A program made the position numbers and the translations under genes. The notes beneath the pieces were generated by a model that had not been told where the DNA came from, did no database searches, and worked only from the letters and a program-made list of their open reading frames with translations. From the NCBI GenBank assembly GCA_034670305.1, contig JAXMNT010000032.1, positions 1 through 64,000 on the forward strand: DNA of 64,000 nt, in the 5' to 3' direction. Of the stretch, positions 29,573 to 59,124 are shown one piece after another. This DNA comes from Deltaproteobacteria bacterium. GTDB lineage: Bacteria > Myxococcota_A > Polyangia > Polyangiales > Houyiibacteriaceae. Each line of letters opens with the position of its first letter. Position 1 is the stretch's first letter.

Positions 29573-29822
29573 AGGCCGGTCGTGGAGCGACCCAGGCCCG
29601 CGGTGCCGGCGAATCGGGCATGCCGGCTTGACCGGGGGGCCGGATGGCGCGAGGTACCTGAAACACGGGGTGGGCGTGCAGCAAACCCCGCGGATCGGGT
29701 GCCCTATGGTATCCTTTCAGGATGCGGGGGCTTCTGCGGCGAGCAGGCTGTCGTGCGGAATTCTGGAGCCAACAAGGCTCTCAAGTGACTGAAATCACGA
29801 CACTTTCGTGGGGCACAACCGG

Positions 29823-30311
29823 ATGATGCAGTTCAAGGTCGGCGACAAGGCGGTCCATCCAGCTCACGGAGTCGGAGAAGTCACCAGCATCGAGAAGAAG
29901 ACGATCGGTGGGAGCGACAAACGTTTCTACATCCTGAAGATCGTCGACACGGGCATGACCGTGATGGTCCCCACCGATGGGGTGGAGCGCCTTGGCCTTC
30001 GAGATGTCATCTCGAAGAAAGAAGCCAAGAAGGTCATGGACGAGCTGAAGAAGGACGAAGTCGCCGTCACCTCTCAGCCGTGGAACCGCCGGTACCGCGA
30101 GTACACCGAGATGCTCAAGAGCGGTTCGCCCATCGAGGTCGCCAAGGTGCTGCGCGATTTGAGCCGCCTGCGCGGCGACAAAGATCTGAGCTTTGGGGAA
30201 CGCCGGTTGCTGGAGCAGGCCCGCAACCTGCTCGTCGCCGAACTCGCGCTCGCCAAGGGCGCGACCGAAGAGAAGATCCGCAAGGACATGGACAAGATCC
30301 TCGGCACCTGA
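29823..30311 (+). CDS. carD: CarD/CdnL-family RNA polymerase-binding regulator (CdnL-type, no HMGA tail)
   Basis: FKVGDKAVHPAHGVG, WNRRYREY, KDLSFGERRLLEQAR. Confidence 0.92.
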   Translation: MMQFKVGDKAVHPAHGVGEVTSIEKKTIGGSDKRFYILKIVDTGMTVMVPTDGVERLGLRDVISKKEAKKVMDELKKDEVAVTSQPWNRRYREYTEMLKSGSPIEVAKVLRDLSRLRGDKDLSFGERRLLEQARNLLVAELALAKGATEEKIRKDMDKILGT

Positions 30312-30355
30312 AGCCGCGGAGGCGCCCTCGCCTCCTGCCGCACTTCCCGCCCGCT

Positions 30356-31027
30356 TCAGTCCGCGCTGCGGCTCGCTTTCTCTTCCAGCCCCGACACGCC
30401 TGCGCGCCGAGCCAACTCTCCGGCGACATCGCGCAGCGTCTTGCCGCGAAGCTGCAGGCCCACCATCAGGTGGTAGAGCACGTCCGCCGCCTCGGACACG
30501 ACGCGTTCGTCGGACTCGGACGCGAGCGCCTCCGCGAGCTCGCCGCCCTCTTCGCGGATCTTCGCGCCGATCTTCTCGGCGCCGCCATCGAGCAACCGCC
30601 GTGTGTAACTCGTGTCTCCGTCGGCCGAGGCGCGCGCTTCGATCGTCTCCGTCAACGTGAGCAACTCCGGGGCGCGGGTCCGCTCGTCCGCGTCGTGGAG
30701 CTCCGGGACCTCTTCGCTCAGCTCCAGAAAAAAGCAGGAGGGTTCGCCGGTGTGGCAACTCGGTCCACTCGGATCGACCAAGTAGAGAAGTGCGTCGCGA
30801 TCGCAATCGGCGCGCACCGAGAAGACGCGCAGCACGTTGCCGCTCGACTCGCCCTTCTTCCAGAGCGACTGGCGCGAGCGAGACCAGAACCACGCGATCC
30901 CCGTCTCGAGGGTGCGGCTCACCGCCTCCGCGTTGGCATGCGCGAGCATGCGGACTTCGCCGGTCAAACGATCCTGCGCCACCACGGTGACCAGCCCCGC
31001 CGCGTCCCACTTCAAATCCTCGAACAT
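30356..31027 (-). CDS. hisIE: Bifunctional phosphoribosyl-AMP cyclohydrolase/phosphoribosyl-ATP diphosphatase
   Basis: WSRSR..LWKKGESSG, DCDRDALL, CHTGEPSCF, SYT..LL, EAADVLYH. Confidence 0.95.
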   Translation of the reverse strand: MFEDLKWDAAGLVTVVAQDRLTGEVRMLAHANAEAVSRTLETGIAWFWSRSRQSLWKKGESSGNVLRVFSVRADCDRDALLYLVDPSGPSCHTGEPSCFFLELSEEVPELHDADERTRAPELLTLTETIEARASADGDTSYTRRLLDGGAEKIGAKIREEGGELAEALASESDERVVSEAADVLYHLMVGLQLRGKTLRDVAGELARRAGVSGLEEKASRSAD

Positions 31028-31280
31028 CGAGGCGTGGCTACGCGACGGGGCTACCCGAAGCAAGAGCGCATTCGCGCTCGCTGGAAGGATCGTCCAATGG
31101 CTGGTGTCATCGAACGAGGCCGCCGGGCCAAGTCTGGCCCTGGTGCCATGGCGTTCAGAGATGTGTTCGACCGGTCCGCCTCTCCCAAAACAGACTGGTC
31201 TCCTCCACCTCTACGCTTCGAGGATGGTCGCGCGGGGTCGGGACGCTGGCCTCTCCCAAAACCAACGCCCCGCGGCGCAA

Positions 31281-31820
31281 CTACCCCCGAAGCGCCGCCA
31301 TGCGTGCTTCATGAGACGCCCGAGCAATCTCGTCGAGATGGCCCTGCGCGCGGTCGGCGAGCCGGGTCGCGCGGTCGCTGTGTTCACGATCGGACTCCGC
31401 CGCTTCGGCGAATCCATCGGCCGTGATCCCGAGGCCTTCCGCATTGAGGTCCATGTTGGTTGCTCTGAACTGGAGCCCCGCGTCCACGGCCTTCGCGGTC
31501 GCGTCGGTCAACCCCGCGCCCGTCTTGTCGCCAGAAGCGGTCAAGCCGGTGGAAGCCGCGGACGCACAGCCGGACATCACGCCCGCGATGAGACGAGTTC
31601 GGGCGGCGTCGCGTTTGACGCCGAGCGCTTCGCGACGCGCTGCAGTCCGTTGGCGGCTGCTCTCTCGGGAGGCGCTCCGGCTCCGGTCCGAGGACTCTTC
31701 GAGGCGGGCGGCGGCTTGTTGGATGGTCTGCTCGAGCCCGCCACCGGCGCCGGTGGTGGGGAGTTCGAAGTCGGCGATGCCGCCGACGGGCGGGGTGGTG
31801 GGGCCTTGAATGCGGGTCAT
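31281..31820 (-). CDS. Putative SctB-like (YopD/SseD-position) minor translocator
   Basis: Helical Ala-rich 179-aa protein with a central weakly hydrophobic segment; last gene of the operon, after the SctE-like gene; RBS AGGAAG. The call is mainly positional. Confidence 0.5.
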   Translation of the reverse strand: MTRIQGPTTPPVGGIADFELPTTGAGGGLEQTIQQAAARLEESSDRSRSASRESSRQRTAARREALGVKRDAARTRLIAGVMSGCASAASTGLTASGDKTGAGLTDATAKAVDAGLQFRATNMDLNAEGLGITADGFAEAAESDREHSDRATRLADRAQGHLDEIARASHEARMAALRG

Positions 31821-31893
31821 GGGTGCTTCCTGTTCGTCATGGGTGGGATGGGTGATTGGTGATTGGTGGATGGGTGTTGGATTGCGTGATCGG

Positions 31894-32847
31894 TCAGGCG
31901 ATGGCGCGTGCGGCGACGCTGAGGGACTGCCCCCGCGCTTCTTGCACCGCGTGCATGCGTCTCGAGATCCGGGCGAAGCGGGTGCGAAGCTTCTTCATCG
32001 CTTCGATGGCTGCTTCCATGTCGTCCATCGCGACCTCGGAGTTCAGCCCATGCTCTTCCGCGTCGATCTGCTCGCCGTCTGCGCGGTAGGTGTGGACGGC
32101 GTTCGTCATCTGAAAGCGTGCTTCGTGAGCTTGCTGGGCGGTGCTGACGCACGTGGCGATGACCTGCGTGGCTTGTACGACGGTTGCCGCGGTTGACCCG
32201 GCTTGTGCGAGTCCGCCCGCGTTTCCGGCAACCGCCATCAGCACCGCTGCGACCAGCTTGAGGACAACTGCGGTGATCATGCCGGCTTTGCCGTCGATCT
32301 TGCCCTCCTTGGCCAGCTTCTCGACTGCCGCTGCAGCGACGAGCAGCACCGCTGCCGCGGCCACGAGCACCATGCTGGCGCCGCCAGTGAATACAGACGC
32401 GACGGCGGCGACGATGATCATTACCGCAGCGATCAACTTCTTCGCCCAGTCCGGCAGCTTCTGATTCAGAAGCTTCGCCAGGTGCTCCTCCGCGGCCTTG
32501 AGCGACTTCATGCGCTCCGCGTCTTCGCCCTCGGACCTGCGGGACGCGGACTCGCTCGAGGCTTCGCCGGCACGGGTGCGTGCATCCCGCACGCTGGTCT
32601 GCATCGCCATCATGGCGGTCATGGGGTCGAGTGCGCCGCCGAGTGCAACCGCAAGCGTGAACTGCTGTTCGTTGCTCAGCGGCGGACTCGAAGGGCTGCC
32701 TGTCGTTCCGCTCGTCCGTCGCGTGTCTCGCCGGGGCGCCGACTCCGCGGGGCTCGTCGTGGATCCAATCGGCGCTCCGTTGCGCCCCGCTTCCGCCCGA
32801 AGGGGCATCGGCGGCAGAGCCACCGCATCGCTTGCTACACGAACCAC
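31894..32847 (-). CDS. SctE-like (YopB/SipB/IpaB/SseC family) T3SS major translocator
   Basis: [34 protein letters not shown] resembles the SipB/IpaB hallmark (V/A)FTGGASL segment; second hydrophobic segment and coiled-coil C-terminus. Confidence 0.75.
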
Positions 32848-33080
32848 GACATCACCTCTTGCATCGCTTCGACCATGTCGGTGTTCCCCTCGCGGCGGTG
32901 GAACGCGATGTACTGCGTCCAGGTCTCGCTCCGGGTCAGGTCGAGCATCAGCAGGATGTCGAGTTGCGTCTCGGCGTCTTCGGTCGCGCCCCGCTTCGCG
33001 TCCGCCTGAGCGAGTTTGCCCAGGTGCGCGAGCTGCGGTTCGTCGAGGCCGAGCGCCGACGCCCAGGAGGCCGTGGTCAT
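32835..33080 (-). CDS. Short SycD/LcrH (class II chaperone)-like TPR protein
   Basis: [13 protein letters not shown]....[19 protein letters not shown]....TW resembles the first TPR of class II chaperones; overlaps both neighbours. Confidence 0.55.
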
Positions 33081-33733
33081 CGGCCCAGGTTCCCGACGAT
33101 GCCCGACATGCCTTCGTTCAGCTTCGTGATGAGGTTGGTGCTCATCTGGATGACTTGGGTGCGCTGCTGGGTGAGCGTCTGGATGGTCATCATCAGCATC
33201 TCGTTGCTCGAGTTCACCCGGGTCGACTGCTGCTTCACCGCCTGAATCGTGCTGTTGATCTGACCGATGTTGATCTGGCCGCTGTCGTTCGGGTTGATGC
33301 CCGGGTGGCCCGCGGCGTTGAGGATGTCGTGGCCGTTGACCTCGCGTGTTCCGCCACCAGGCACGTCCACCATGAACTTGAGGTCGTGCAGGTCGACGAG
33401 GGTGTCTTCCGCCGTTCCAGTCTTTTGTGCCTCCGCAAGAATGCTGTTCAGCGCTTCCTGCTGCCGGGTGAGGACCTCGGACGTCTGGGTGTTGTTCTGG
33501 AGTCGCTCGAGGGACCCGGCGATCTGGTTGTCCAGGTCGTTGAGGCGCTGCCGCGCCATCGCGAGGATCATCTCGGGGGAGATGGCGGCCATCGGAAGCG
33601 AGTAGCCGGTGCTGAGGGACAGTTCGCCGGCGCGGTACTCGATGTCGGCGATGAACTCGGCCGGGAGTCCTCCATCGTCGAAGTCCATGTCGGGGTAGAT
33701 GTCGAGGGCGGGAAGTTCGATGGCGGAAGGCAT
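33077..33733 (-). CDS. T3SS tip/filament-like protein (SctA; Bsp22/SseB/EspA/LcrV-type C-terminal helix)
   Basis: C-terminus [43 protein letters not shown] and an N-terminal coiled coil; RBS GGAG. Confidence 0.65.
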
Positions 33734-33742
33734 GAAGGACTC

Positions 33743-33961
33743 CTAGGCGCGCAGGGCGTGGGTTGGGATGAAGGGTTCGGAGCGGACTGCTTCGGGGGCC
33801 GCGACCTGCTTGCGCATTGCTCGCTCCGCATCGGCGAGTGCTTCGGGGTCGAGGTCGAGCTCGTCGGTGAAGAGCGCGAGCTCTTGGTCCTGACGGGCGC
33901 GTTCGGCTTGGAGGCGCTCGAGTTCGAGGCGGAGGCGGGTGGTGCGTTGTTTCTCGGTCAT
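33743..33961 (-). CDS. Small coiled-coil protein, first gene of the translocon-like operon (LcrG/SseA position)
   Basis: 72 aa, RBS AGAGGA, 9-bp gap to the next gene. Confidence 0.6.
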
Positions 33962-34120
33962 GGGGTTCCTCTGAAGACGTGCCCCTCCTCGGTGGGCGGT
34001 GCGCGCAGTTGCGGCCATGCGCGAAAAGTTTCTCGCGCGGGCGGCCGCGGGCGAGAGATGCGCGTCCACGGCCTCGGCTGGCGTTTCGCCGACGCCCGCG
34101 ACGCCGCTGTTCCGCGGGTT

Positions 34121-34387
34121 GCTGTTGCTGCGGCTGACGCTGCTGCCGACTCCGCTGCTGTCGCTGCTGCTGTCTCTGCTGCTGTCGCTGCTGCTGACTC
34201 TGCTGCTGACTCTGCTGCTGACTCTGCTGCTGACTCTGCGGCTGACTCTGCTGCTGTCTCTGCGGCTGACTCTGCTGCTGACTCTGCTGCTGACTCTGCT
34301 GCTGTCGCTGCTGCTGTCACTGCGGCTGTCTCTGCTGCTGACTCTGCTGCTGACTCTGCCGCTGACTCTGCTGCTGTCGCTGCTGTC
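34121..34387. repeat. Intergenic array of about 22 degenerate 12-mers (GCTGCTGACTCT)
   Basis: Read directly. Confidence 0.95.
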
Positions 34388-34390
34388 GTG

Positions 34391-34640
34391 CCAAAGCCGA
34401 ACCCGAAGCCGATCCCGAAGCCGATCCCGAAGCCGATCCCGAAGCCGATCCCGAAGCCGACCCCGAAGCCGATCCCGAAGCCGATCCCGAAGCCGACCCC
34501 GAAGCCGCTTCCGAAGCCGCTACCGCTTCCGCTTCCGCTTCCGAAGCCGATCCCGAAGCCGCTACCGCTTCCGCTTCCGCTTCCGCTTCCGCTTCCGAAG
34601 CCGCTACCGCTTCCGCTTCGATCCCGCTTCCGAATCCCGC
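34391..34640. repeat. Intergenic array of CCGAAGCCGATC 12-mers grading into CCGCTT hexamers
   Basis: Read directly; abuts the previous array. Confidence 0.95.
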
Positions 34641-34650
34641 TTCGCTCAGC

Positions 34651-52286: not shown

Positions 52287-52547
52287 TTGGCCGCCACCAT
52301 GCACCGACTCCAGATCGACGACCGAGCCGCCTACACGAGCAGTCCTTTGATCCTCGTGGAGATGCTGTTGGTTCTGGCGGCGTTGGTCTGGGTGCTGCCG
52401 CAAGTGGTCGCGGTGGGCGTCCTCATCTGGAAACGGGACGAGGCCGGCCGATGGCCTTTCGCGGGCGGTGGCGCCCTACTGGCGCTGCTCGTCGGCACCT
52501 ACGCGGCGTGCGCGATCGACAGTTCGACCATCTTGTACGCCACCTGA
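52287..52547 (+). CDS. Small hypothetical membrane protein
   Basis: Two hydrophobic helices; start uncertain. Confidence 0.4.
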   Translation: MAATMHRLQIDDRAAYTSSPLILVEMLLVLAALVWVLPQVVAVGVLIWKRDEAGRWPFAGGGALLALLVGTYAACAIDSSTILYAT

Positions 52548-52599
52548 CCATCCCCACCGAAGCGCTGGCTTGTGGGCGTGGCTTTGGTATGACCGCGCG

Positions 52600-55500
52600 G
52601 TGTCAGAGGACTACAGCGAAAGCGACATCGCGATCGTCGGAATGGCCGCGCACCTGCCCGGTGCCCGGACGATCGACGACTACTGGACCAACCTCGTGGA
52701 CGGGGTCGAATCCGTACAGCGCTACAGCGATGAAGAACTCATCGAAGCGGGGGTCCCGCGCGCGCACCTTCGGCATCCGCGGTACGTGAAAGCGGCCGCG
52801 GAGCTCCAGGACATGGAGCTCTTCGACGGAGAGTTCTTCGGGTTCAGCCCGAAAGAATCCGCGATCGTCGATCCGCAGCACCGGCACTTTCTCGAGGTCT
52901 GCTGGGAGGCGCTGGAAGACGCTGGGCACCCGCCGTCGAAGTTCGACGGTCCGATTGGGATCTACGGCGGCTGCGGCATGGGCAGCTACTTCTACTTCAA
53001 CCTCTGCAGCAACCCGAACCTCGTCGACTCGGTCGGCATGTTCCTCTTGCGGCACACCGGCAACGACAAAGACTTCCTCGTCACCCGCGTCGCCCACGTG
53101 CTCGACCTGACCGGCCCGGCCGTGAACGTGCAGACCGCCTGCTCTACCTCGCTCGTCGCCGTGCACTACGCGATCCAGTCGCTGATGAACCAGGAGTGCG
53201 ACATGGCGCTCGCGGGCGGGGTGACGATCGAGATCCCGCACCGCCGCGGCTACTTCTTCGAAGAGGGCGAGATCCTCTCGCCGGACGGCCACTGCCACGC
53301 GTTCGATCACCGCAGCCAAGGCACCGTGTTCGGAAGCGGCGCGGGCGCCGTGGTGCTGCGGCGCCTGGAAGACGCACGCGCCGACGGCGACCACATCTAT
53401 GCGGTCATCCGTGCGACCGCGATCAACAACGACGGCGCCAGCAAAGCCGGGTACCTCGCACCCAGCGTGCAAGGACAGGCGACCTGCATCGTCGAAGCCC
53501 ACGCGCTCGCGGACGTCGATCCGCGCAGCATCGGCTACGTGGAGTGCCACGGCACCGGCACCTATCTCGGCGATCCGATCGAGGTCTCGGCGCTGACCGA
53601 AGCGTTCCGCCAAGGCACCGACGACAACCAGTTCTGCGGCATCGGATCGGTCAAGACGAACATCGGTCACCTCGACACCGCCGCCGGCGTGGCCTCGTTG
53701 ATCAAGAGCGCGCTCATCCTCGACCGCGAGATCGTGCCGGCCACGCTCAACTTCGAGAAGCCGAACCCGACGATCGACTTCGAGTCGAGCCCCTTCTACG
53801 TCAACGCGAAACGCAAGGAGTGGAAGCGCGGCCCCGAACCACGCCGGGTCGGCGTCCAGTCGCTCGGTGTCGGCGGCACCAACGCGCACGTCGTGCTGCA
53901 GGAAGCGCCGGCGCCCGCACCCTCCGGACCGTCCGCCCACACCGACCACCTCTTCCTGGTGAGCGCGCGCAACCGCGGCGCGCTGGATCAGACAGCCCAG
54001 AAACTCGCGGACCATCTCGAGACCACCTCGGATCGGCTCGCGGACATCACGCACACCCTCCACGTGGGCCGCCACGAGTTCGAACGTCGACGCGTCGTCG
54101 TCGCGGCCAGCGGTGCGGAAGCGGCCACCCGTCTGCGCGGCAAGGATCCGCGCCGGGTCTTCAACCACGTGGCACTCGACCAGCCGAAGGTGGCGTTCCT
54201 CTTTCCAGGCGGCGGCGCGCAGTACGTCTCGATGGCGAAGGATCTCTACGACCGCGAGCCGGTGTTCCGCGCGGTCATGGACCGCGCGTTCAAGTACCTG
54301 GCCACCAAGGACCTCGACCACGATCCGAAAGCGCTGCTCTTCGGCGAGGTGGACGACGCGGCCGCGCGGCTCGAGAAGCCCGGCTCCCAGCTCTCGATGA
54401 TCTTCTCGGTGAGCTACGGACTCGCGCTGCTCTTCGAAGATCGCGGCGTGGTGCCGGACGCGATGACCGGACACTCGATGGGCGAGTACGTCGCGGCGTG
54501 TTTGGCGGGTGTGTTCTCGTTCGAGGACGCGCTCGGGCTCGTGCTCCTGCGCGGGCAGCTGATGGACCGGGTCGAGGTCGGCGCGATGCTCTCGGTCCCG
54601 CTCACCGAAGAGGCCATCGCCCCGCTGCTCGGTGCGGACTTGGATCTGGCGGGCGTGAACGCGCCCGACCTGATGCTCGTCAGCGGACCGGTACCCGCGA
54701 TCGAAGCGCTCGAGGAGACGCTCCAAGCACAAGACATCGAACCGCAACGGGTGCGCATCGACCGCGCCGCGCACTCGCGCATGTTCGATCCGATCCTCGA
54801 AGACTTCCGCGCGTACATCTCCAAGATGAAGCTGCAGCCGCCGACGAAACGGTTCGTCTCCAGCAACACCGGCACCTGGATCACGCCCGCGCAGGCCACC
54901 GATCCGAACTACTGGACACGCCACTTGCGCGAGACGGTCCGGTTCAGCGATGCCATCGACACACTCGCCGCGGACGCGCCGATGATCTTCGTCGAGGTCG
55001 GCCCCGGCCGCGCGATGAGCGCGTTCGCCAAAGCCAACCCGCGGGTCGACGCACAGACCGTGGTCAACGCGCTTCGGCACCGCGACGAAGTCGTCGCCGA
55101 CGACGTGTTCTTCCTCGAAGCGATCGGCCGCTTGTGGGCGCTCGGCCTCTTCTCGAACCTGGACGAAGACGCGGACAACCCGCTCGACCAGCTCTGGGCC
55201 GGAGAGACCCGCCGACGGGTGCGCTTGCCGACCTACGCGTTCCAGCGCCAGCACTACTTCATCGAACCGGGCGTCTCGAGCGGTGCGGCCGCCGCGCCCG
55301 AAGTCACGCGCCACGAGGAAGTCGCGGACTTCGGCTACGAACCCTACTACCGGCCGGTCGCGGCCGAGCCCGCCCACACCTCCGCCGATGCGCGCGACGC
55401 GGAACGGTTCCTGGTGTTCCTCGACGACGCCGGGGTCGGCAAACGACTCGTCGCGGCGCTGCGTACACGCGGCGACCAGGTCACCACGGTGCGACCGGGC

Positions 55501-58500
55501 GACACCTTCAGCAAGCGCGCCGACGGCGAGTACGTGCTCGCGCCCGAGCGCGGCCGAGAAGGCTACGACCAGCTGGTGCAAGATCTCGTGCAGTCCGCGC
55601 GGGTGCCGACCCGGATCGTGCACCTGTGGTTGACCACCGCCGACGAAGGGTTCCGCCCCGGGTCGAGCTTCTTCCACCGCAACCAGGAGCGGGGCTTCTA
55701 CTCGCTGCTCTTCCTCGCGCAGGCGCTCGCCGACGAGAACGTGCCGCGGCCGCTGCACCTGCAGGTCGTGACGAACAGCGCGCTTGCGACCGGCGACGCG
55801 CCGGCCCGCTACCCGGAGAAGGCGACCGCGCTCGGCCCGGTCCAGGTCGTGCCGCGCGAGCTTCCCGGCGTGACCGCGTCCTTGCTCGATGTGACTTTGC
55901 CGCAGTCCAGCCGCCGCCTCTTCGGCGGCCGGCTCGCGATGGCGCTCGTCGACCCGTTCGCGGGCAAGAAGACCCTCACGCTCGGGCTCGACCAACTGGC
56001 GGAGACCGTGCTCGAAGAAGCCGACGCGGTGCCGCGCGAATGCGTCGCGGCGATCCGCGAAGGCAAACGGCTCGAACGTGGCTACCGCTCTCGGGCGCTG
56101 TCGACCTCGGAAACCGGTGCCTCCAGCGAACAGGTCCTGCGCAAGCACGGGGTGTACGTCCTGACCGGTGGGCTCGGCGGACTCGGTCTCGTGGCCGCCG
56201 AAGCACTCGCCCGCAGCGTGCACGCGAAGCTCGTGCTGGTGGGCCGCACGCCGCTGCCCGAACGAGACAGCTGGGACGCCTACATCGCAGAGCACGGCGA
56301 AGCCGACCGCACGAGCCGGCGTCTGCTCGCGGTGCGGGAACTCGAAGCGCTCGGCGCCGAAGTGCTCGTGCTCGCGGCCGACGTCACCAACGTCGAACAG
56401 GTGCGCGCGGTGGTCGCCGAGACCAAACGGCGCTTCGGCCGTATCCACGGGCTGCTCCACACCGCGGGCACCGTGTCCGACGCGCTCATCCAGACCAAAC
56501 GGCTCACCGAAGTCGAGGACGTCTTCGCGCCGAAGGTGCACGGCACCGAAGTGCTCCGCGAAGTGTTCGCGCCCGAGGGGCTCGACTTCGTGCTGCTCTA
56601 CAGCTCGACCTCCACCGCGATCGCACCGACGGGCCAGGTCGACTACGTCGCCGCCAACGCGTTCCTCGACGCGATGGCGTCCACCGAGGGCACCTTCGGC
56701 ACCGCGCGGGTTCAGGTGGTCAACTGGGGGATCTGGAACCAGGTCGGCATGGCCGCCGAAGCGATGTCGAGCTCGGATCTGAGCCGGAGCCCGGACCAGC
56801 TCAAGCCCACCACACACCCGCTCTTCGATGGCCGCCTGCGGGACACCCACGGCACGCTTCACTTCTTCGGGAAACACGCGACCGACACCCACTGGATCTA
56901 CGACGAGCACCGCGTCAAATCCGCTCGAGCCGCCACGGATGGGGACAGCCGTGGTTGGGCGCTGATCCCGGGCACCGGCTACTTGGAGCTCGCGGCCGGC
57001 GCACTCGCCGAACTCGGAGAGTCCGCGCCGTTCGCGATCGAAGATCTCTACTTCTTGCGTCCGCTCCAAATCGACGACGGACAGTCGCGCGAGGTGCGCG
57101 TGAAGATGCGCCGCACCGACGCGGGCTACGCCATGGAAGTGCGGAGCGAGTGTTTGGTCGAAGGCCGCCGCGCGTGGCAACTCCACGCCCAGTGCGGCTT
57201 GAGCGTCGCGAAGGCGGAAGTGCCGGCGCGCATCGATCTGGACGCGGTCGAGCAGCGGTGCCGCGATCGGGTCGAGCGCGGAGACGGACTGCGGTCGCCG
57301 CAGGAAGCGCACCTCTCGTTCGGTGGTCGGTGGCGGGTGCTTCGGGAGGTGCGCTACGGCGAACGAGAAGCGCTCGCGGAGCTCTGTCTGCCGCCCGATG
57401 CCGAAGGCGATCCGGCAGCCGGTTGGCGTCTGCACCCCGCGCTCATGGATCTGGCCACCGGCTACGCAATGGGACTCATCGAAGGCTACGGCGGCGCCGA
57501 AGTCTGGGTGCCGGTCAGCTACGAGTCGGTGGAGGTCTTCGGTCCACTCCCGGCACAGATCCGGAGCTGGGTCCGGAGCGCGGGCGAGAACACGAGCGAC
57601 GGTCAGTTCGCGCTCTTCGACGTCGACATCACGGATCTCGAAGGCCACGTCGTGTTGCAGGTCCGCCGCTTCGCGATTCGCAAGATGGCGCAAGCGGACT
57701 TCGGGGCCACCCGCGCGCCGACGCGCGGCGACGTCGAGATGGAACGCGACCCGCGCGCGGAAGAAGACCGCCCGCTCTCACCGGCGGAGCAGCGGCTCCG
57801 GCGCAACCTCGAACGCGGCATCGTGCCGAGCGAGGGCGGCGAAGCGCTGGTTCGATTGATTGAATCGAAACGCCGGCAAGTCATCGTCACCAGCCTCGAC
57901 CTGGCCGGCTTGATGGAAGAAGCGAAGCAGGTCGTGGAGTTGCCCGAGGGCGGGAGCGCCAAGTTCGCGCGCCCCGATCTCGACAGCGACTACGTGGCCC
58001 CGCGCGACGATGTCGAGCGCACGCTGGTCGGCTTCTGGGAGGAGCTCTTGGGCGTCGACCAAGTCGGTGTGCAGGACAGCTTCTTCGACCTCGGGGGGCA
58101 CTCGCTCATCGCAGTCCGGCTCTTCGCGATGGTGAAGAAGGCGTACCAGGCCGAGTTCCCGATCAGCGTGCTCTTCGAGGCGCCGACCGTCGAAGCCTGC
58201 GCCGAGCTCATCAAAGAGGCGATCGGCTTCACCGAAGATGGGGCCGCCGAGTCCGCGCCGAGCAAGAAGGCACCGAAGCGCCGGTACACGCACCTCGTGC
58301 CGATGCATCCGGGCGTCGGTGGGCACACCACCTCGGACGACACCGAGCGGCCTCCGTTCTTCTTGGTCGCGGGCATGTTCGGCAACGTGCTGAACCTGCG
58401 CCACCTCGCGCATCTGCTCGGCACCGACCGCCCATTCTACGGGCTGCAGGCGAAGGGCCTCTACGGCGGCGACGCGCCCCACGAGACGTTCGAGGAGATG

Positions 58501-59124
58501 GCCACCGCGTACATCGCGGAGATGCGCACCGTGCAGGCCAAGGGGCCATACTTCGTGGGCGGGTTCTCCGGCGGCGGCTACACCGCGCTCGAGATCGCAC
58601 GGCAGCTTCGCGCCGAAGGCGAAGAGGTGCCGATGCTGGTGATGCTCGACACGCCCGCGCTGCTCGTGCCCCGCAAGCTCTCGCCCCGAGACCGCGCGAC
58701 CATCCAACTTCAGCGCATCCAACAGAAGGGCGCCGGCTACGTGGTGGAGTGGGCGCAGAACCGGCTCGAATGGGAGCTCGGCAAACTCCGGCAGCGCTTC
58801 GAAGAAGAAGAGCAACTCGCCGAGACCGAGTTCCACAACGAAGCCATCGAAGGTGCGTTCCGCCGCGCCCTGGCGCGCTACACCATTCCCCACTGGGACC
58901 AACGCCTGGTGCTCTTCCGGCCGCCGCTCGAGAAGGCGTACGACCTCGGGGACGGGCGGATCCTCAACCACGACCGCGAGTACGTGTACCCCGACAACGG
59001 CTGGTCCGAGCACTGCGATCAAGTCGAGGTCTACGAAGTACCGGGGGACCACGACTCGATGGTGCTGGAGCCCAACGTGCGCGTGATGGCGTCCCGACTG
59101 AAACAGATCCTCGAAGACGTTTGA
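52600..59124 (+). CDS. Type I polyketide synthase, KS-AT-KR-DH-ACP-TE
   Basis: VQTACSTS, HGTGT, NIGHL (KS); GHSMG, RAAHS (AT); GGLGGLG, GQVDYVAAN (KR); EHRV...IPGTGYLEL, LHPALMD (DH); GGHSL (ACP); GFSGG, GDH (TE). Confidence 0.95.
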   Translation: MSEDYSESDIAIVGMAAHLPGARTIDDYWTNLVDGVESVQRYSDEELIEAGVPRAHLRHPRYVKAAAELQDMELFDGEFFGFSPKESAIVDPQHRHFLEVCWEALEDAGHPPSKFDGPIGIYGGCGMGSYFYFNLCSNPNLVDSVGMFLLRHTGNDKDFLVTRVAHVLDLTGPAVNVQTACSTSLVAVHYAIQSLMNQECDMALAGGVTIEIPHRRGYFFEEGEILSPDGHCHAFDHRSQGTVFGSGAGAVVLRRLEDARADGDHIYAVIRATAINNDGASKAGYLAPSVQGQATCIVEAHALADVDPRSIGYVECHGTGTYLGDPIEVSALTEAFRQGTDDNQFCGIGSVKTNIGHLDTAAGVASLIKSALILDREIVPATLNFEKPNPTIDFESSPFYVNAKRKEWKRGPEPRRVGVQSLGVGGTNAHVVLQEAPAPAPSGPSAHTDHLFLVSARNRGALDQTAQKLADHLETTSDRLADITHTLHVGRHEFERRRVVVAASGAEAATRLRGKDPRRVFNHVALDQPKVAFLFPGGGAQYVSMAKDLYDREPVFRAVMDRAFKYLATKDLDHDPKALLFGEVDDAAARLEKPGSQLSMIFSVSYGLALLFEDRGVVPDAMTGHSMGEYVAACLAGVFSFEDALGLVLLRGQLMDRVEVGAMLSVPLTEEAIAPLLGADLDLAGVNAPDLMLVSGPVPAIEALEETLQAQDIEPQRVRIDRAAHSRMFDPILEDFRAYISKMKLQPPTKRFVSSNTGTWITPAQATDPNYWTRHLRETVRFSDAIDTLAADAPMIFVEVGPGRAMSAFAKANPRVDAQTVVNALRHRDEVVADDVFFLEAIGRLWALGLFSNLDEDADNPLDQLWAGETRRRVRLPTYAFQRQHYFIEPGVSSGAAAAPEVTRHEEVADFGYEPYYRPVAAEPAHTSADARDAERFLVFLDDAGVGKRLVAALRTRGDQVTTVRPGDTFSKRADGEYVLAPERGREGYDQLVQDLVQSARVPTRIVHLWLTTADEGFRPGSSFFHRNQERGFYSLLFLAQALADENVPRPLHLQVVTNSALATGDAPARYPEKATALGPVQVVPRELPGVTASLLDVTLPQSSRRLFGGRLAMALVDPFAGKKTLTLGLDQLAETVLEEADAVPRECVAAIREGKRLERGYRSRALSTSETGASSEQVLRKHGVYVLTGGLGGLGLVAAEALARSVHAKLVLVGRTPLPERDSWDAYIAEHGEADRTSRRLLAVRELEALGAEVLVLAADVTNVEQVRAVVAETKRRFGRIHGLLHTAGTVSDALIQTKRLTEVEDVFAPKVHGTEVLREVFAPEGLDFVLLYSSTSTAIAPTGQVDYVAANAFLDAMASTEGTFGTARVQVVNWGIWNQVGMAAEAMSSSDLSRSPDQLKPTTHPLFDGRLRDTHGTLHFFGKHATDTHWIYDEHRVKSARAATDGDSRGWALIPGTGYLELAAGALAELGESAPFAIEDLYFLRPLQIDDGQSREVRVKMRRTDAGYAMEVRSECLVEGRRAWQLHAQCGLSVAKAEVPARIDLDAVEQRCRDRVERGDGLRSPQEAHLSFGGRWRVLREVRYGEREALAELCLPPDAEGDPAAGWRLHPALMDLATGYAMGLIEGYGGAEVWVPVSYESVEVFGPLPAQIRSWVRSAGENTSDGQFALFDVDITDLEGHVVLQVRRFAIRKMAQADFGATRAPTRGDVEMERDPRAEEDRPLSPAEQRLRRNLERGIVPSEGGEALVRLIESKRRQVIVTSLDLAGLMEEAKQVVELPEGGSAKFARPDLDSDYVAPRDDVERTLVGFWEELLGVDQVGVQDSFFDLGGHSLIAVRLFAMVKKAYQAEFPISVLFEAPTVEACAELIKEAIGFTEDGAAESAPSKKAPKRRYTHLVPMHPGVGGHTTSDDTERPPFFLVAGMFGNVLNLRHLAHLLGTDRPFYGLQAKGLYGGDAPHETFEEMATAYIAEMRTVQAKGPYFVGGFSGGGYTALEIARQLRAEGEEVPMLVMLDTPALLVPRKLSPRDRATIQLQRIQQKGAGYVVEWAQNRLEWELGKLRQRFEEEEQLAETEFHNEAIEGAFRRALARYTIPHWDQRLVLFRPPLEKAYDLGDGRILNHDREYVYPDNGWSEHCDQVEVYEVPGDHDSMVLEPNVRVMASRLKQILEDV

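Follow-up and report, generated by a model that had tools for sequence, protein, structure and literature searches.

A five-gene operon beside hisIE

In this study we describe an operon of five genes in a 64,000-nucleotide stretch of DNA (in the following the window: positions 1 to 64,000 of contig JAXMNT010000032.1, GenBank assembly GCA_034670305.1) from a bacterium that GTDB places in the Polyangiales of the phylum Myxococcota_A. The operon occupies positions 31281-33961 of the minus strand, where five co-oriented open reading frames (ORFs) encode proteins of 72, 218, 81, 317 and 179 amino acids (aa) in the order of transcription. Four of the five proteins are homologous to components of type III secretion systems (T3SSs), namely needle, translocator chaperone, major translocator and minor translocator. 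The genes, with the evidence on which each entry rests, are:

33743..33961, minus strand: 72-aa acidic coiled-coil protein, first gene of the operon (ORF listing, orthologue starts)
33077..33733, minus strand: 218-aa needle-family protein, candidate needle or filament subunit with an SctF/EspA-like role (PF09392 in relatives, AlphaFold model, hhalign)
32835..33080, minus strand: 81-aa tetratricopeptide repeat (TPR) protein, about half of a class II (translocator) T3SS chaperone (AlphaFold model, Foldseek, TIGR02552 in relatives)
31894..32847, minus strand: 317-aa putative major translocator of the SctE/SseC type (PF04888 in relatives, hhalign against IpaB)
31281..31820, minus strand: 179-aa putative SseD-like (SctB-type) minor translocator (NF052420 in relatives, hhalign against EspB)

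From the first to the fifth gene the intergenic spacings are 9, -4, -13 and 73 nucleotides (nt), followed by 217 nt to the next gene. The first four genes are tightly coupled, because only 9 nt separate the first two and the 81-aa gene overlaps the upstream gene by 4 nt at its start and the downstream gene by 13 nt at its end. Downstream of the operon lies hisIE (30356-31063, with PRA-CH and PRA-PH domains) and then, convergent to it, carD. The upstream side carries two tandem arrays with a period of 12 nt, one at 34128-34385 (about 21 copies) and one at about 34394-34643 (10 to 21 copies). An earlier note on this DNA, made from the letters alone, had given five co-oriented genes of these sizes and positions, tight coupling of the first four and a setting between hisIE and a repeat array; all of this agrees with the ORF listing, the spacings and the arrays.

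Several observations indicate that these are genes rather than chance ORFs: a codon-position pattern of G+C (GC) content that is typical of coding sequence in all five, intact frames in related genomes (no internal stops in the homologues of the 317-aa protein in 28 of the 28 genomes matched by the protein query), conserved synteny, and confident AlphaFold (AF2) models, with a predicted local distance difference test (pLDDT) of 85.4 for the 218-aa and 93.7 for the 81-aa protein. Four of the five start codons have a Shine-Dalgarno-like run of purines ahead of them. For the first gene the frame also allows a 108-aa form that starts at a GTG further upstream; the orthologues begin at the same M-x-EKQR as the 72-aa form, which supports the ATG start, and a Shine-Dalgarno-like AGAGGAA lies 4 nt upstream of this ATG. 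By hydropathy, none of the five proteins has an N-terminal hydrophobic or signal-peptide-like segment, hydrophobic stretches being found only inside the 317-aa protein, and this fits an export that is independent of Sec.

Family relationships of the operon proteins

Alignments of orthologues from related genomes identify four of the five operon proteins. The 317-aa protein is by its family relationships a major translocator of the SctE/SseC type, for which pore formation and T3SS-dependent secretion are predicted. Its N-terminus is disordered and is followed by a short coiled coil, a membrane hairpin of two helices, a third hydrophobic helix and, at the C-terminus, another coiled coil; the hydrophobic stretches are residues 134-180 (the hairpin, with the TGGAS turn inside) and 186-214. 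In an alignment of 26 relatives (A1) the SseC family PF04888 is matched by 15 members (best E 3.6e-11), and no other family by more than 2. When A1 was compared with IpaB of Shigella (pCP301) by hhalign, residues 130-198 aligned to IpaB 305-405 with a probability of 96.4% (E 1.4e-9). The IpaB region that aligns to the hairpin reads AAFSGGASLALAAVGL, with the turn AFSGGASLAL. The glycines G155 and G156 are near-invariant among the 26 SctE-like sequences, and R293 is conserved as well. A word-index homologue search with the 317-aa protein gave three proteins only; the 53%-identical one has a precomputed PF04888 match. Searching PDB sequences with the SctE alignment returned nothing but coiled-coil noise (E >= 0.32). 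A few of the orthologues will already carry an SseC label from automatic annotation, since some pass the Pfam threshold.

The 179-aa protein appears, from sequence comparison at the family level, to be distantly paralogous to the C-terminal half of the 317-aa protein, as the hidden Markov models (HMMs) of A1 and of the 179-aa family alignment (A2) weakly match each other's proteins. On weaker evidence it can be assigned as a putative SseD-like, SctB-type minor translocator: 8 of the 21 A2 members match NF052420 translocon_SseD (best E 6.1e-8, all below the cut-off), one member also matches an SctB subfamily model, one matches PF05802 SctB2 below its cut-off, and hhalign relates A2 to EspB (E 4.5e-4). 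The gene lies 73 nt downstream of the sctE-like gene, and 20 of the 26 related loci have a counterpart downstream in the same orientation.

Judged from its model and from its relatives, the 81-aa protein is a half-length class II TPR chaperone with a predicted translocator client. The AF2 model is all-helical with four main helices. Ranks 1 to 11 of its Foldseek list are all T3SS TPR chaperones, nearly all of them class II (SycD, IpgC, AcrH, PcrH, Scc3), with generic TPR proteins ranking below. The best match is SycD (2vgx_A; E 5.9e-3, template modelling score relative to the query (TMq) 0.81, root-mean-square deviation (rmsd) 1.7 over 76 columns). The model covers about half of each chaperone target (TMq up to 0.83; relative to the target, TMt, 0.42-0.52). 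Among 20 relatives (A4), nine match TIGR02552 LcrH_SycD (best 26.6 bits against a cut-off of 104.8), three match SctY and nine match generic TPR families. The full architecture of about three TPR units in 135-170 aa and a TIGR02552 score above the cut-off are thus both lacking, and length, helix number, half coverage and scores together describe a half-size relative of the class II chaperones, not a regular member. When the 81-aa protein was modelled in complex with the first 110 residues of the 317-aa protein, the score was 0.00 (mark 0.32), which gives no verdict either way.

The 218-aa protein ends in a helix that, at the level of the family and by sequence comparison, can be placed in the needle (SctF) family. 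PF09392 is matched by 14 of 26 members in one alignment (A3, best E 4.9e-6) and by 49 of 148 in a larger one built from a library search (A7, best E 4.8e-7); other families are matched by at most 3 members. The conserved C-terminus reads NSGNE-M--LQS-MQQR-Q-I-L-TN-L------I--N-R, with Q185 and R191 conserved in the needle-like helix. By hhalign this helix aligns with EscF (probability 54.7%, E 1.2e-4) and with the end of MxiH (...AIIQNFR; E 1.2e-3), and the best PDB sequence match of the family is a needle fragment (7y6c_F, E 0.098). In the AF2 model two long helices (53-104 and 156-217), of about 50-60 residues each, run antiparallel as a hairpin; the tip carries a small beta-rich domain of about 50 residues, and an N-terminal extension of 50 residues precedes the hairpin. 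The protein is therefore not the small, bare helix-turn-helix of about 70-90 aa of needle proteins (EscF 73 aa, MxiH 83 aa). The top Foldseek match is the EspA filament (7khw_A, E 8.8e-3). Nevertheless none of the 26 or 148 family members matches PF03433 (EspA/SseB), and neither the protein nor these relatives match tip profiles of the LcrV/IpaD type. In metagenomes the family is a large one, with 2988 clusters at E <= 1e-3. The needle-like C-terminal helix was also matched on its own in five genomes from other orders within the phylum (G086, G091, G237, G252 and G344), in open frames of 119-363 aa.

The 72-aa protein is an acidic coiled coil with a conserved C-terminal ALRA motif and has orthologues at 11 of 26 related loci. 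Its family (A5) gave Pfam or NCBIfam matches in none of 11 relatives, and the Atlas search gave no usable match. Our guess is a helper of the 218-aa protein that resembles SseA/CesAB or YscE. The order yscE-yscF-yscG parallels that of the 72-aa, 218-aa and 81-aa genes. We considered the 72-aa and 81-aa proteins as needle co-chaperones of the YscE/YscG type; this seems less likely, as there was no YscE/YscG family match and both Foldseek and NCBIfam favour translocator chaperones.

The family assignments sustain the idea of the earlier note that this is a translocon-type T3SS operon with an SctE protein, a chaperone (Foldseek ranks 1-11, TIGR02552 in relatives) and an SctB-type last gene (NF052420 in 8 of 21 members). 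Its statement that the VFTGGAS segment typifies SctE translocators holds for IpaB, whose SGGAS turn was aligned by hhalign, whereas the turn of EspD differs (VFNPAL). On the other hand, the LcrV-type tip that it had proposed for the 218-aa protein found no profile match, and the conserved C-terminal helix matches the needle family instead. The term 'miniaturised' is apt for the chaperone (81 against 135-155 aa) and moderately so for the SctE-like protein (317 aa against 374 for EspD and 580 for IpaB), but the other two are of near-normal size (179 aa against the 195 positions of the SPI-2 SseD model; 218 aa against 192 for EspA; SPI-2 being Salmonella pathogenicity island 2).

Conservation and inheritance of the operon

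Of 61 related genomes, 28 gave an intact homologue of the 317-aa protein in a protein query (24-40% identity); for genomes of the same family the figure is 21 of 36. The SctE-like family HMM detects 37 of the 61. All of 26 related loci hold the 218-like and 317-like genes; between these two, 20 loci have a tightly coupled ORF of 65-110 aa, a 179-like gene follows in 20 and a 72-like gene precedes in 11. Named records with a 218-like gene (15 loci) are all metagenome-assembled genomes (MAGs) labelled Sandaracinaceae, Sandaracinus, Polyangiaceae, Polyangiales, Myxococcota or Deltaproteobacteria. In a sample of the phylum the SctE-like HMM matches 17 of 401 genomes, all 17 in the order of the window; this is a minimum count, since the first look was a stricter one. 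The 218-like HMM matches 23 of 301 genomes, 18 in the order and 5 only over the last 40-70 residues.

In its own genome the operon is single-copy (family HMM search), and its GC content of 0.63-0.70 is like that of the flanks. Five relatives from several genera have the collinear order carD-operon-hisIE, all on one strand, and four further relatives have hisIE immediately behind the operon, which makes nine relatives with hisIE in this place. carD adjoins the SseC-like gene in three genomes of two other families. Compared with the five collinear relatives (L048, L049, L050, L053, L054), the operon-hisIE block of the window (29808-33961) is inverted relative to carD, with the repeats at its far edge. 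A search of 72,556 plasmids with the 317-aa protein (tblastn) gave no match, though the low-complexity filter probably masks the hydrophobic core. The recurring hisIE and carD neighbours, the single copy and the ordinary GC content point to an old and vertically inherited part of the T3SS rather than a plug-in module. The suggestion of a swappable module in the earlier note is contradicted by these data. The gene order that it proposed to look for is conserved at the 26 related loci, with the counts given above for each gene.

The operon tends to occur together with SctV, which is present in 36 of the 37 related genomes with an SctE-like gene (61 genomes), and of seven SctV-negative relatives only one keeps the operon (G022, 90% complete); one whole SctV-less genus lacks it. 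As related genomes are not independent samples, this co-occurrence is supportive only. In one relative (G006) the order is sctV-omp85-operon-hisIE with the operon about 3 kb from sctV, and in the window genome sctV likewise adjoins omp85.

A dispersed secretion apparatus

The genome holds one T3SS. Eight of its core genes were found (sctV, sctR, sctS, sctT, sctU, sctN, sctJ and sctQ). All are full-length and each is above its curated cut-off, and they lie at seven loci among mostly housekeeping genes, six of them being single-gene loci:

C50:27707-29662: SctV, one FHIPEP gene; neighbours omp85, a Rieske oxygenase gene and a Ser/Thr kinase gene
C15:135560-136177: SctR; neighbours a K+ channel gene and an extracytoplasmic function (ECF) sigma gene, then mreB
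C13:130433-131465: SctS-SctT, adjacent pair
C32:80896-81897: SctU, about 47 kb from the operon and outside the window; neighbours priA and an ORF without family match
C88:8268-9545: SctN; neighbours an SNF2 helicase gene and a lycopene cyclase gene
C6:170245-170757: SctJ; neighbours a kinase-like gene and a glutamate dehydrogenase gene
C99:9676-9885: SctQ, near the contig end; neighbour ctaA

Among solved chains, SctV is closest to an injectisome SctV (7alw, 551.6 bits, against 470 bits for FlhA). Relatives (G005-G059) often have two SctV paralogues, with 53-77% and 41-44% identity to the SctV of the window genome, which itself has only the one of the 53-77% kind; this suggests two T3SSs in much of the order. 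A genome search with PF09392 gave no other needle-family gene (best E 0.16, inside a 957-aa ORF). Within the window, Pfam searches of 37 ORFs, the five operon genes excluded, showed no T3SS apparatus family and no mobile-element gene, so that the absence of apparatus genes nearby, as described in the earlier note, is real; the nearest is sctU. 'Orphan', the word used there, applies only in a broader sense: the genome does have one T3SS, with its core genes at seven loci. Service in trans is in line with eight core proteins encoded elsewhere in the genome, whereas the distant injectisome was not found as a cluster, every core gene found being dispersed.

Further observations concern two of these contigs. 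The SctR ORF and the ECF sigma gene lie at L014:9546-10736 and L014:11354-12109 (minus strand; L014 corresponds to C15). In the SctR ORF about 186 residues precede the FliP domain as an N-terminal extension, and the ECF sigma gene, upstream of sctR on the same strand, is a possible regulator of the dispersed system. On the contig of sctV a 976-aa ORF (C50:17050-19980, corresponding to L003:7051-9981, minus strand) joins parts of three RNA polymerase subunits in one protein, namely Rpb2 domains 6 and 7 of beta, Rpb1 domain 1 of beta' and an alpha C-terminal domain, an unusual fused and truncated architecture that resembles RNA polymerase.

Flanking regions

33962..34650, minus strand: upstream intergenic region with tandem arrays and a short conserved element (Tandem Repeats Finder, upstream alignment)
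31265..31278, minus strand: weak terminator-like hairpin right after the stop codon of the 179-aa gene (terminator scan)

The operon is separated from an M23/LysM peptidase gene by a spacer of about 690 bp, most of which is filled by the two arrays. If translated in frame, the arrays would give peptide repeats of the AAES and KPIP-like kinds. In one genus, three relatives have no upstream repeats and instead a small extra ORF of about 52 aa. The operon promoter probably lies in 33962-34650; a promoter scan showed no sigma-70-like promoter. About 45-65 nt upstream of the first ATG is the element CTTTTC-N10-GCAACT (34007-34028, minus strand), which is kept in three relatives of another genus. 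In the genome it occurs at only 5 sites (strict form) or 8 (relaxed form), none near another T3SS gene, and as a test for a shared motif this is weak because the start sites of several apparatus genes are uncertain. Terminator-like sites in the region number 3 against 2.5 expected from shuffles, which is not significant alone. A type I polyketide synthase of 2218 aa (KS-AT-KR-DH-ACP-TE; 52468-59124, plus strand) is encoded about 19 kb from the operon. A search for sequencing runs containing the stretch found four DNA runs of one study, from which it may stem, and no RNA run was listed.

Comparison with known systems

The Shigella genes ipgC-ipaB-ipaC-ipaD and mxiH (pCP301) share with the operon a TPR chaperone gene directly upstream of the SctE gene, a hairpin turn (xFSGGASLAL) and a needle protein whose end aligns with the C-terminal helix of the 218-aa family. 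However, IpaB, which carries a long coiled-coil domain in its N-terminal part, is 580 aa long, compared with 317 aa here, and IpgC has 155 aa compared with 81. In Shigella the needle (83 aa) and the tip protein IpaD are separate and encoded beside the apparatus, whereas here one 218-aa needle-family protein leads the translocator operon with no apparatus nearby. The LEE4 operon of the locus of enterocyte effacement (LEE) in E. coli O157:H7 Sakai (sepL-espA-espD-espB-cesD2-escF) likewise combines a filament- or needle-type protein, SctE and SctB. There are weak hhalign similarities to EspD (1.1e-3) and EspB (4.5e-4) at equivalent positions; the EspA filament is the top structural match of the 218-aa protein, and EscF aligns with the C-terminal helix of its family. 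Differences are that EspA is without profile similarity to the 218-aa protein, that the EspD hairpin turn is another one, that the chaperones CesD (151 aa) and CesD2 (135 aa) are elsewhere in the locus, and that in the LEE all apparatus genes lie together on one compact island. In SPI-2 the order sseA-sseB-sscA-sseC-sseD stands for a small helical protein, an EspA-like protein, a TPR chaperone, SctE and SctB, which is the gene order of our operon, and it is the SseC (Pfam) and SseD (NCBIfam) models that the two translocator families matched, with all matches of the operon families below the equivalog cut-offs. SPI-2 has a full-length class II chaperone, SscA, a separate needle, SsaG, and a clustered apparatus.

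Within the phylum, passages in two papers describe the T3SS* of Myxococcus xanthus and the 'Myxo' non-flagellar T3SS (NF-T3SS) of Cystobacterineae as clustered (MXAN_2434-2464) and without secretin, SctF, tip and translocon (PMC3459982, PMC10433427). According to the relevant part of PMC3459982 the 'Myxo' systems are confined to Cystobacterineae, and the portions of PMC10433427 and PMC11509652 that deal with myxobacterial systems treat them as needle-less T3SS*. The present system resembles the Myxococcus one in belonging to the same phylum and in having no recognised dedicated secretin, but differs by the presence of needle-family and translocator genes and by the dispersal of its apparatus genes. 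Scattered T3SS genes are mentioned in PMC3459982 for Chlamydiales, Hamiltonella and one Yersinia plasmid. Chlamydiales and Hamiltonella thus share with our genome T3SS genes spread over several loci, and the chlamydial arrangement, as far as that text describes it, is less fragmented than eight core genes at seven loci. In full-text literature searches no account of needle or translocon genes from Polyangia came up; supplementary tables (for example of PMC3459982 and PMC11509652) may list Polyangia T3SS genes. What distinguishes the present case is the divergent operon, the half-size chaperone, the needle-family protein with an inserted domain and the near-total unlinking of the machine genes.

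Interpretation

Four independent family assignments (SctE, SctB, chaperone and needle) point to the same machine. From these homologies we consider it likely that the operon is the distal, target-contacting module of the single T3SS of the genome. What we infer from here on concerns secretion by the T3SS, polymerisation, pore formation, the chaperone-client pairs and the nature of the target cell. The 218-aa protein would be exported without a Sec signal and would polymerise, or cap a polymer, via its needle-type N- and C-terminal helices, with the small inserted domain facing outward, comparable to EspA filaments or flagellin. The half-TPR protein of 81 aa, which may form a dimer, would hold the 317-aa translocator in the cytoplasm, and the 72-aa protein would probably act as a small chaperone or regulator of the needle-like protein. 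Upon contact with a target cell the SctE-like 317-aa and the SctB/SseD-like 179-aa proteins would be secreted and inserted into the target membrane as a pore, while the SctRSTUV export apparatus, the SctN ATPase, SctJ and SctQ would be supplied from the seven other loci.

A number of results weigh against this interpretation. In single-sequence searches no operon protein of the window reaches any curated family cut-off: the 317-aa protein alone matches PF04888 with E 0.037 (14 bits; cut-off 30.2) and the 179-aa protein matches NF052420 with E 0.012 (15.7 bits; cut-off 130), the 218-aa protein has no PF09392 match, and the 81-aa protein has no TIGR02552 match and a weak generic TPR match only. 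The 179-aa protein shows no clear transmembrane segment (maximum 19-residue hydropathy 1.3 against a mark of 1.6). The Foldseek matches of the 218-aa and 81-aa models have E > 0.001, those of the coiled-coil hairpin being non-specific, and hhalign of the 218-aa family against EspA found nothing (probability 0.1%). Of the SctV-positive relatives, 18 of 54 have no SctE-like match. Concerning the machine itself, no T3SS-type secretin is above the cut-off in the genome (best 122.8 against 238.45 bits), and the HrpJ gatekeeper (PF07201) was not found there; besides secretin, needle and gatekeeper, the apparatus search covered SctV, R, S, T, U, N, J and Q.

It might also be possible that the 218-aa protein is a tip or sheath (SctA; like SseB, EspA, LcrV or IpaD) on a short canonical needle from an undetected gene, although we regard this as less likely. 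Its gene precedes those of the chaperone and SctE, as tip or filament genes do (espA in LEE4); in the SPI-2 and Yersinia operons a tip or filament gene is likewise ahead of chaperone and SctE. Some Atlas clusters that look like the 218-aa protein contain EspA in 12% of their members and one contains LcrV in 12%, and IpaD fragments come fourth in the Foldseek list (E 0.036, rmsd > 17). However, no EspA, LcrV or IpaD profile matches and the needle is the only recurrent family; neither is there a separate needle gene in the genome, though very short divergent genes are easily missed. A quite different explanation would be that the genes derive from a T3SS but now work independently of it, as a set of secreted or self-inserting helical pore-forming toxins (ClyA/Hbl-like) or in another membrane function. 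We think this improbable. The missing apparatus gene next to the operon, the distant paralogy of the translocators (as in tripartite toxins), a weak match of one 179-aa orthologue to HblD (E 7e-4) and the retention of the operon in G022 without detected SctV would fit such toxins, but none of the operon proteins begins with anything like a Sec signal, neither a dedicated TPR chaperone nor a needle-family protein is known to play a part in toxins that act without a T3SS, and the operon occurs with SctV in 36 of 37 genomes and near sctV in G006.

Two other explanations were considered. One is that the operon is the decaying, non-functional remnant of a once clustered T3SS, in keeping with its small and divergent genes and with the secretin and gatekeeper that were not detected. 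This is very improbable, as all five frames are intact, orthologues are free of internal stops in 28 of 28 genomes, translational coupling and gene order are conserved across families, key residues are kept (G155, G156 and R293 of SctE; Q185 and R191 of the needle-like helix) and the eight core apparatus genes are full-length and above cut-off. The other takes the operon as a pore-forming cassette that moves horizontally, can be swapped and works with a distant injectisome; it has the least probability of all and is largely refuted by synteny: hisIE lies downstream in nine relatives, and carD is adjacent in five of them and in three genomes of two other families. The separation from all apparatus genes, the tandem repeats at one edge and the inversion of the block relative to carD against five relatives could be read as signs of mobility. 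Yet the operon is single-copy, with GC like the flanks and no Pfam mobile-element gene among the window ORFs, and the family was found only in the order of the window (17 of 401 genomes as a floor) and in none of 72,556 plasmids.

Implications

As a likely target-contacting T3SS module, the operon bears on how myxobacterial T3SSs are viewed. The needle-less descriptions, in the parts of PMC3459982, PMC10433427 and PMC11509652 that give them, leave delivery to prey unexplained. In at least one order of myxobacteria, as the operon shows, genes of the needle family and for translocators are still recognisable. Detection methods based on gene clusters would miss this operon because it is too divergent for single-sequence annotation and lies away from the apparatus genes. 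The genome also presents an extreme case of a multi-protein machine with genes that are almost fully unlinked and yet conserved, and it offers a minimal translocator-type chaperone of 81 aa and a needle-family protein with an inserted surface domain for study. The hypotheses on the operon are testable in culturable relatives.

As a tentative hypothesis, Polyangiales (here a Sandaracinaceae-like MAG) might possess a complete contact-dependent injection device with its genes at eight or more loci, presumably co-regulated in trans, and with a 'decorated' 218-aa needle or filament subunit and a half-size TPR chaperone. If this were true, the needle-less T3SS* of Myxococcus would be a derived loss and not the condition of all myxobacterial T3SSs, and T3SS-mediated pore insertion into the membranes of prey or protists would be part of the lifestyle of this order.

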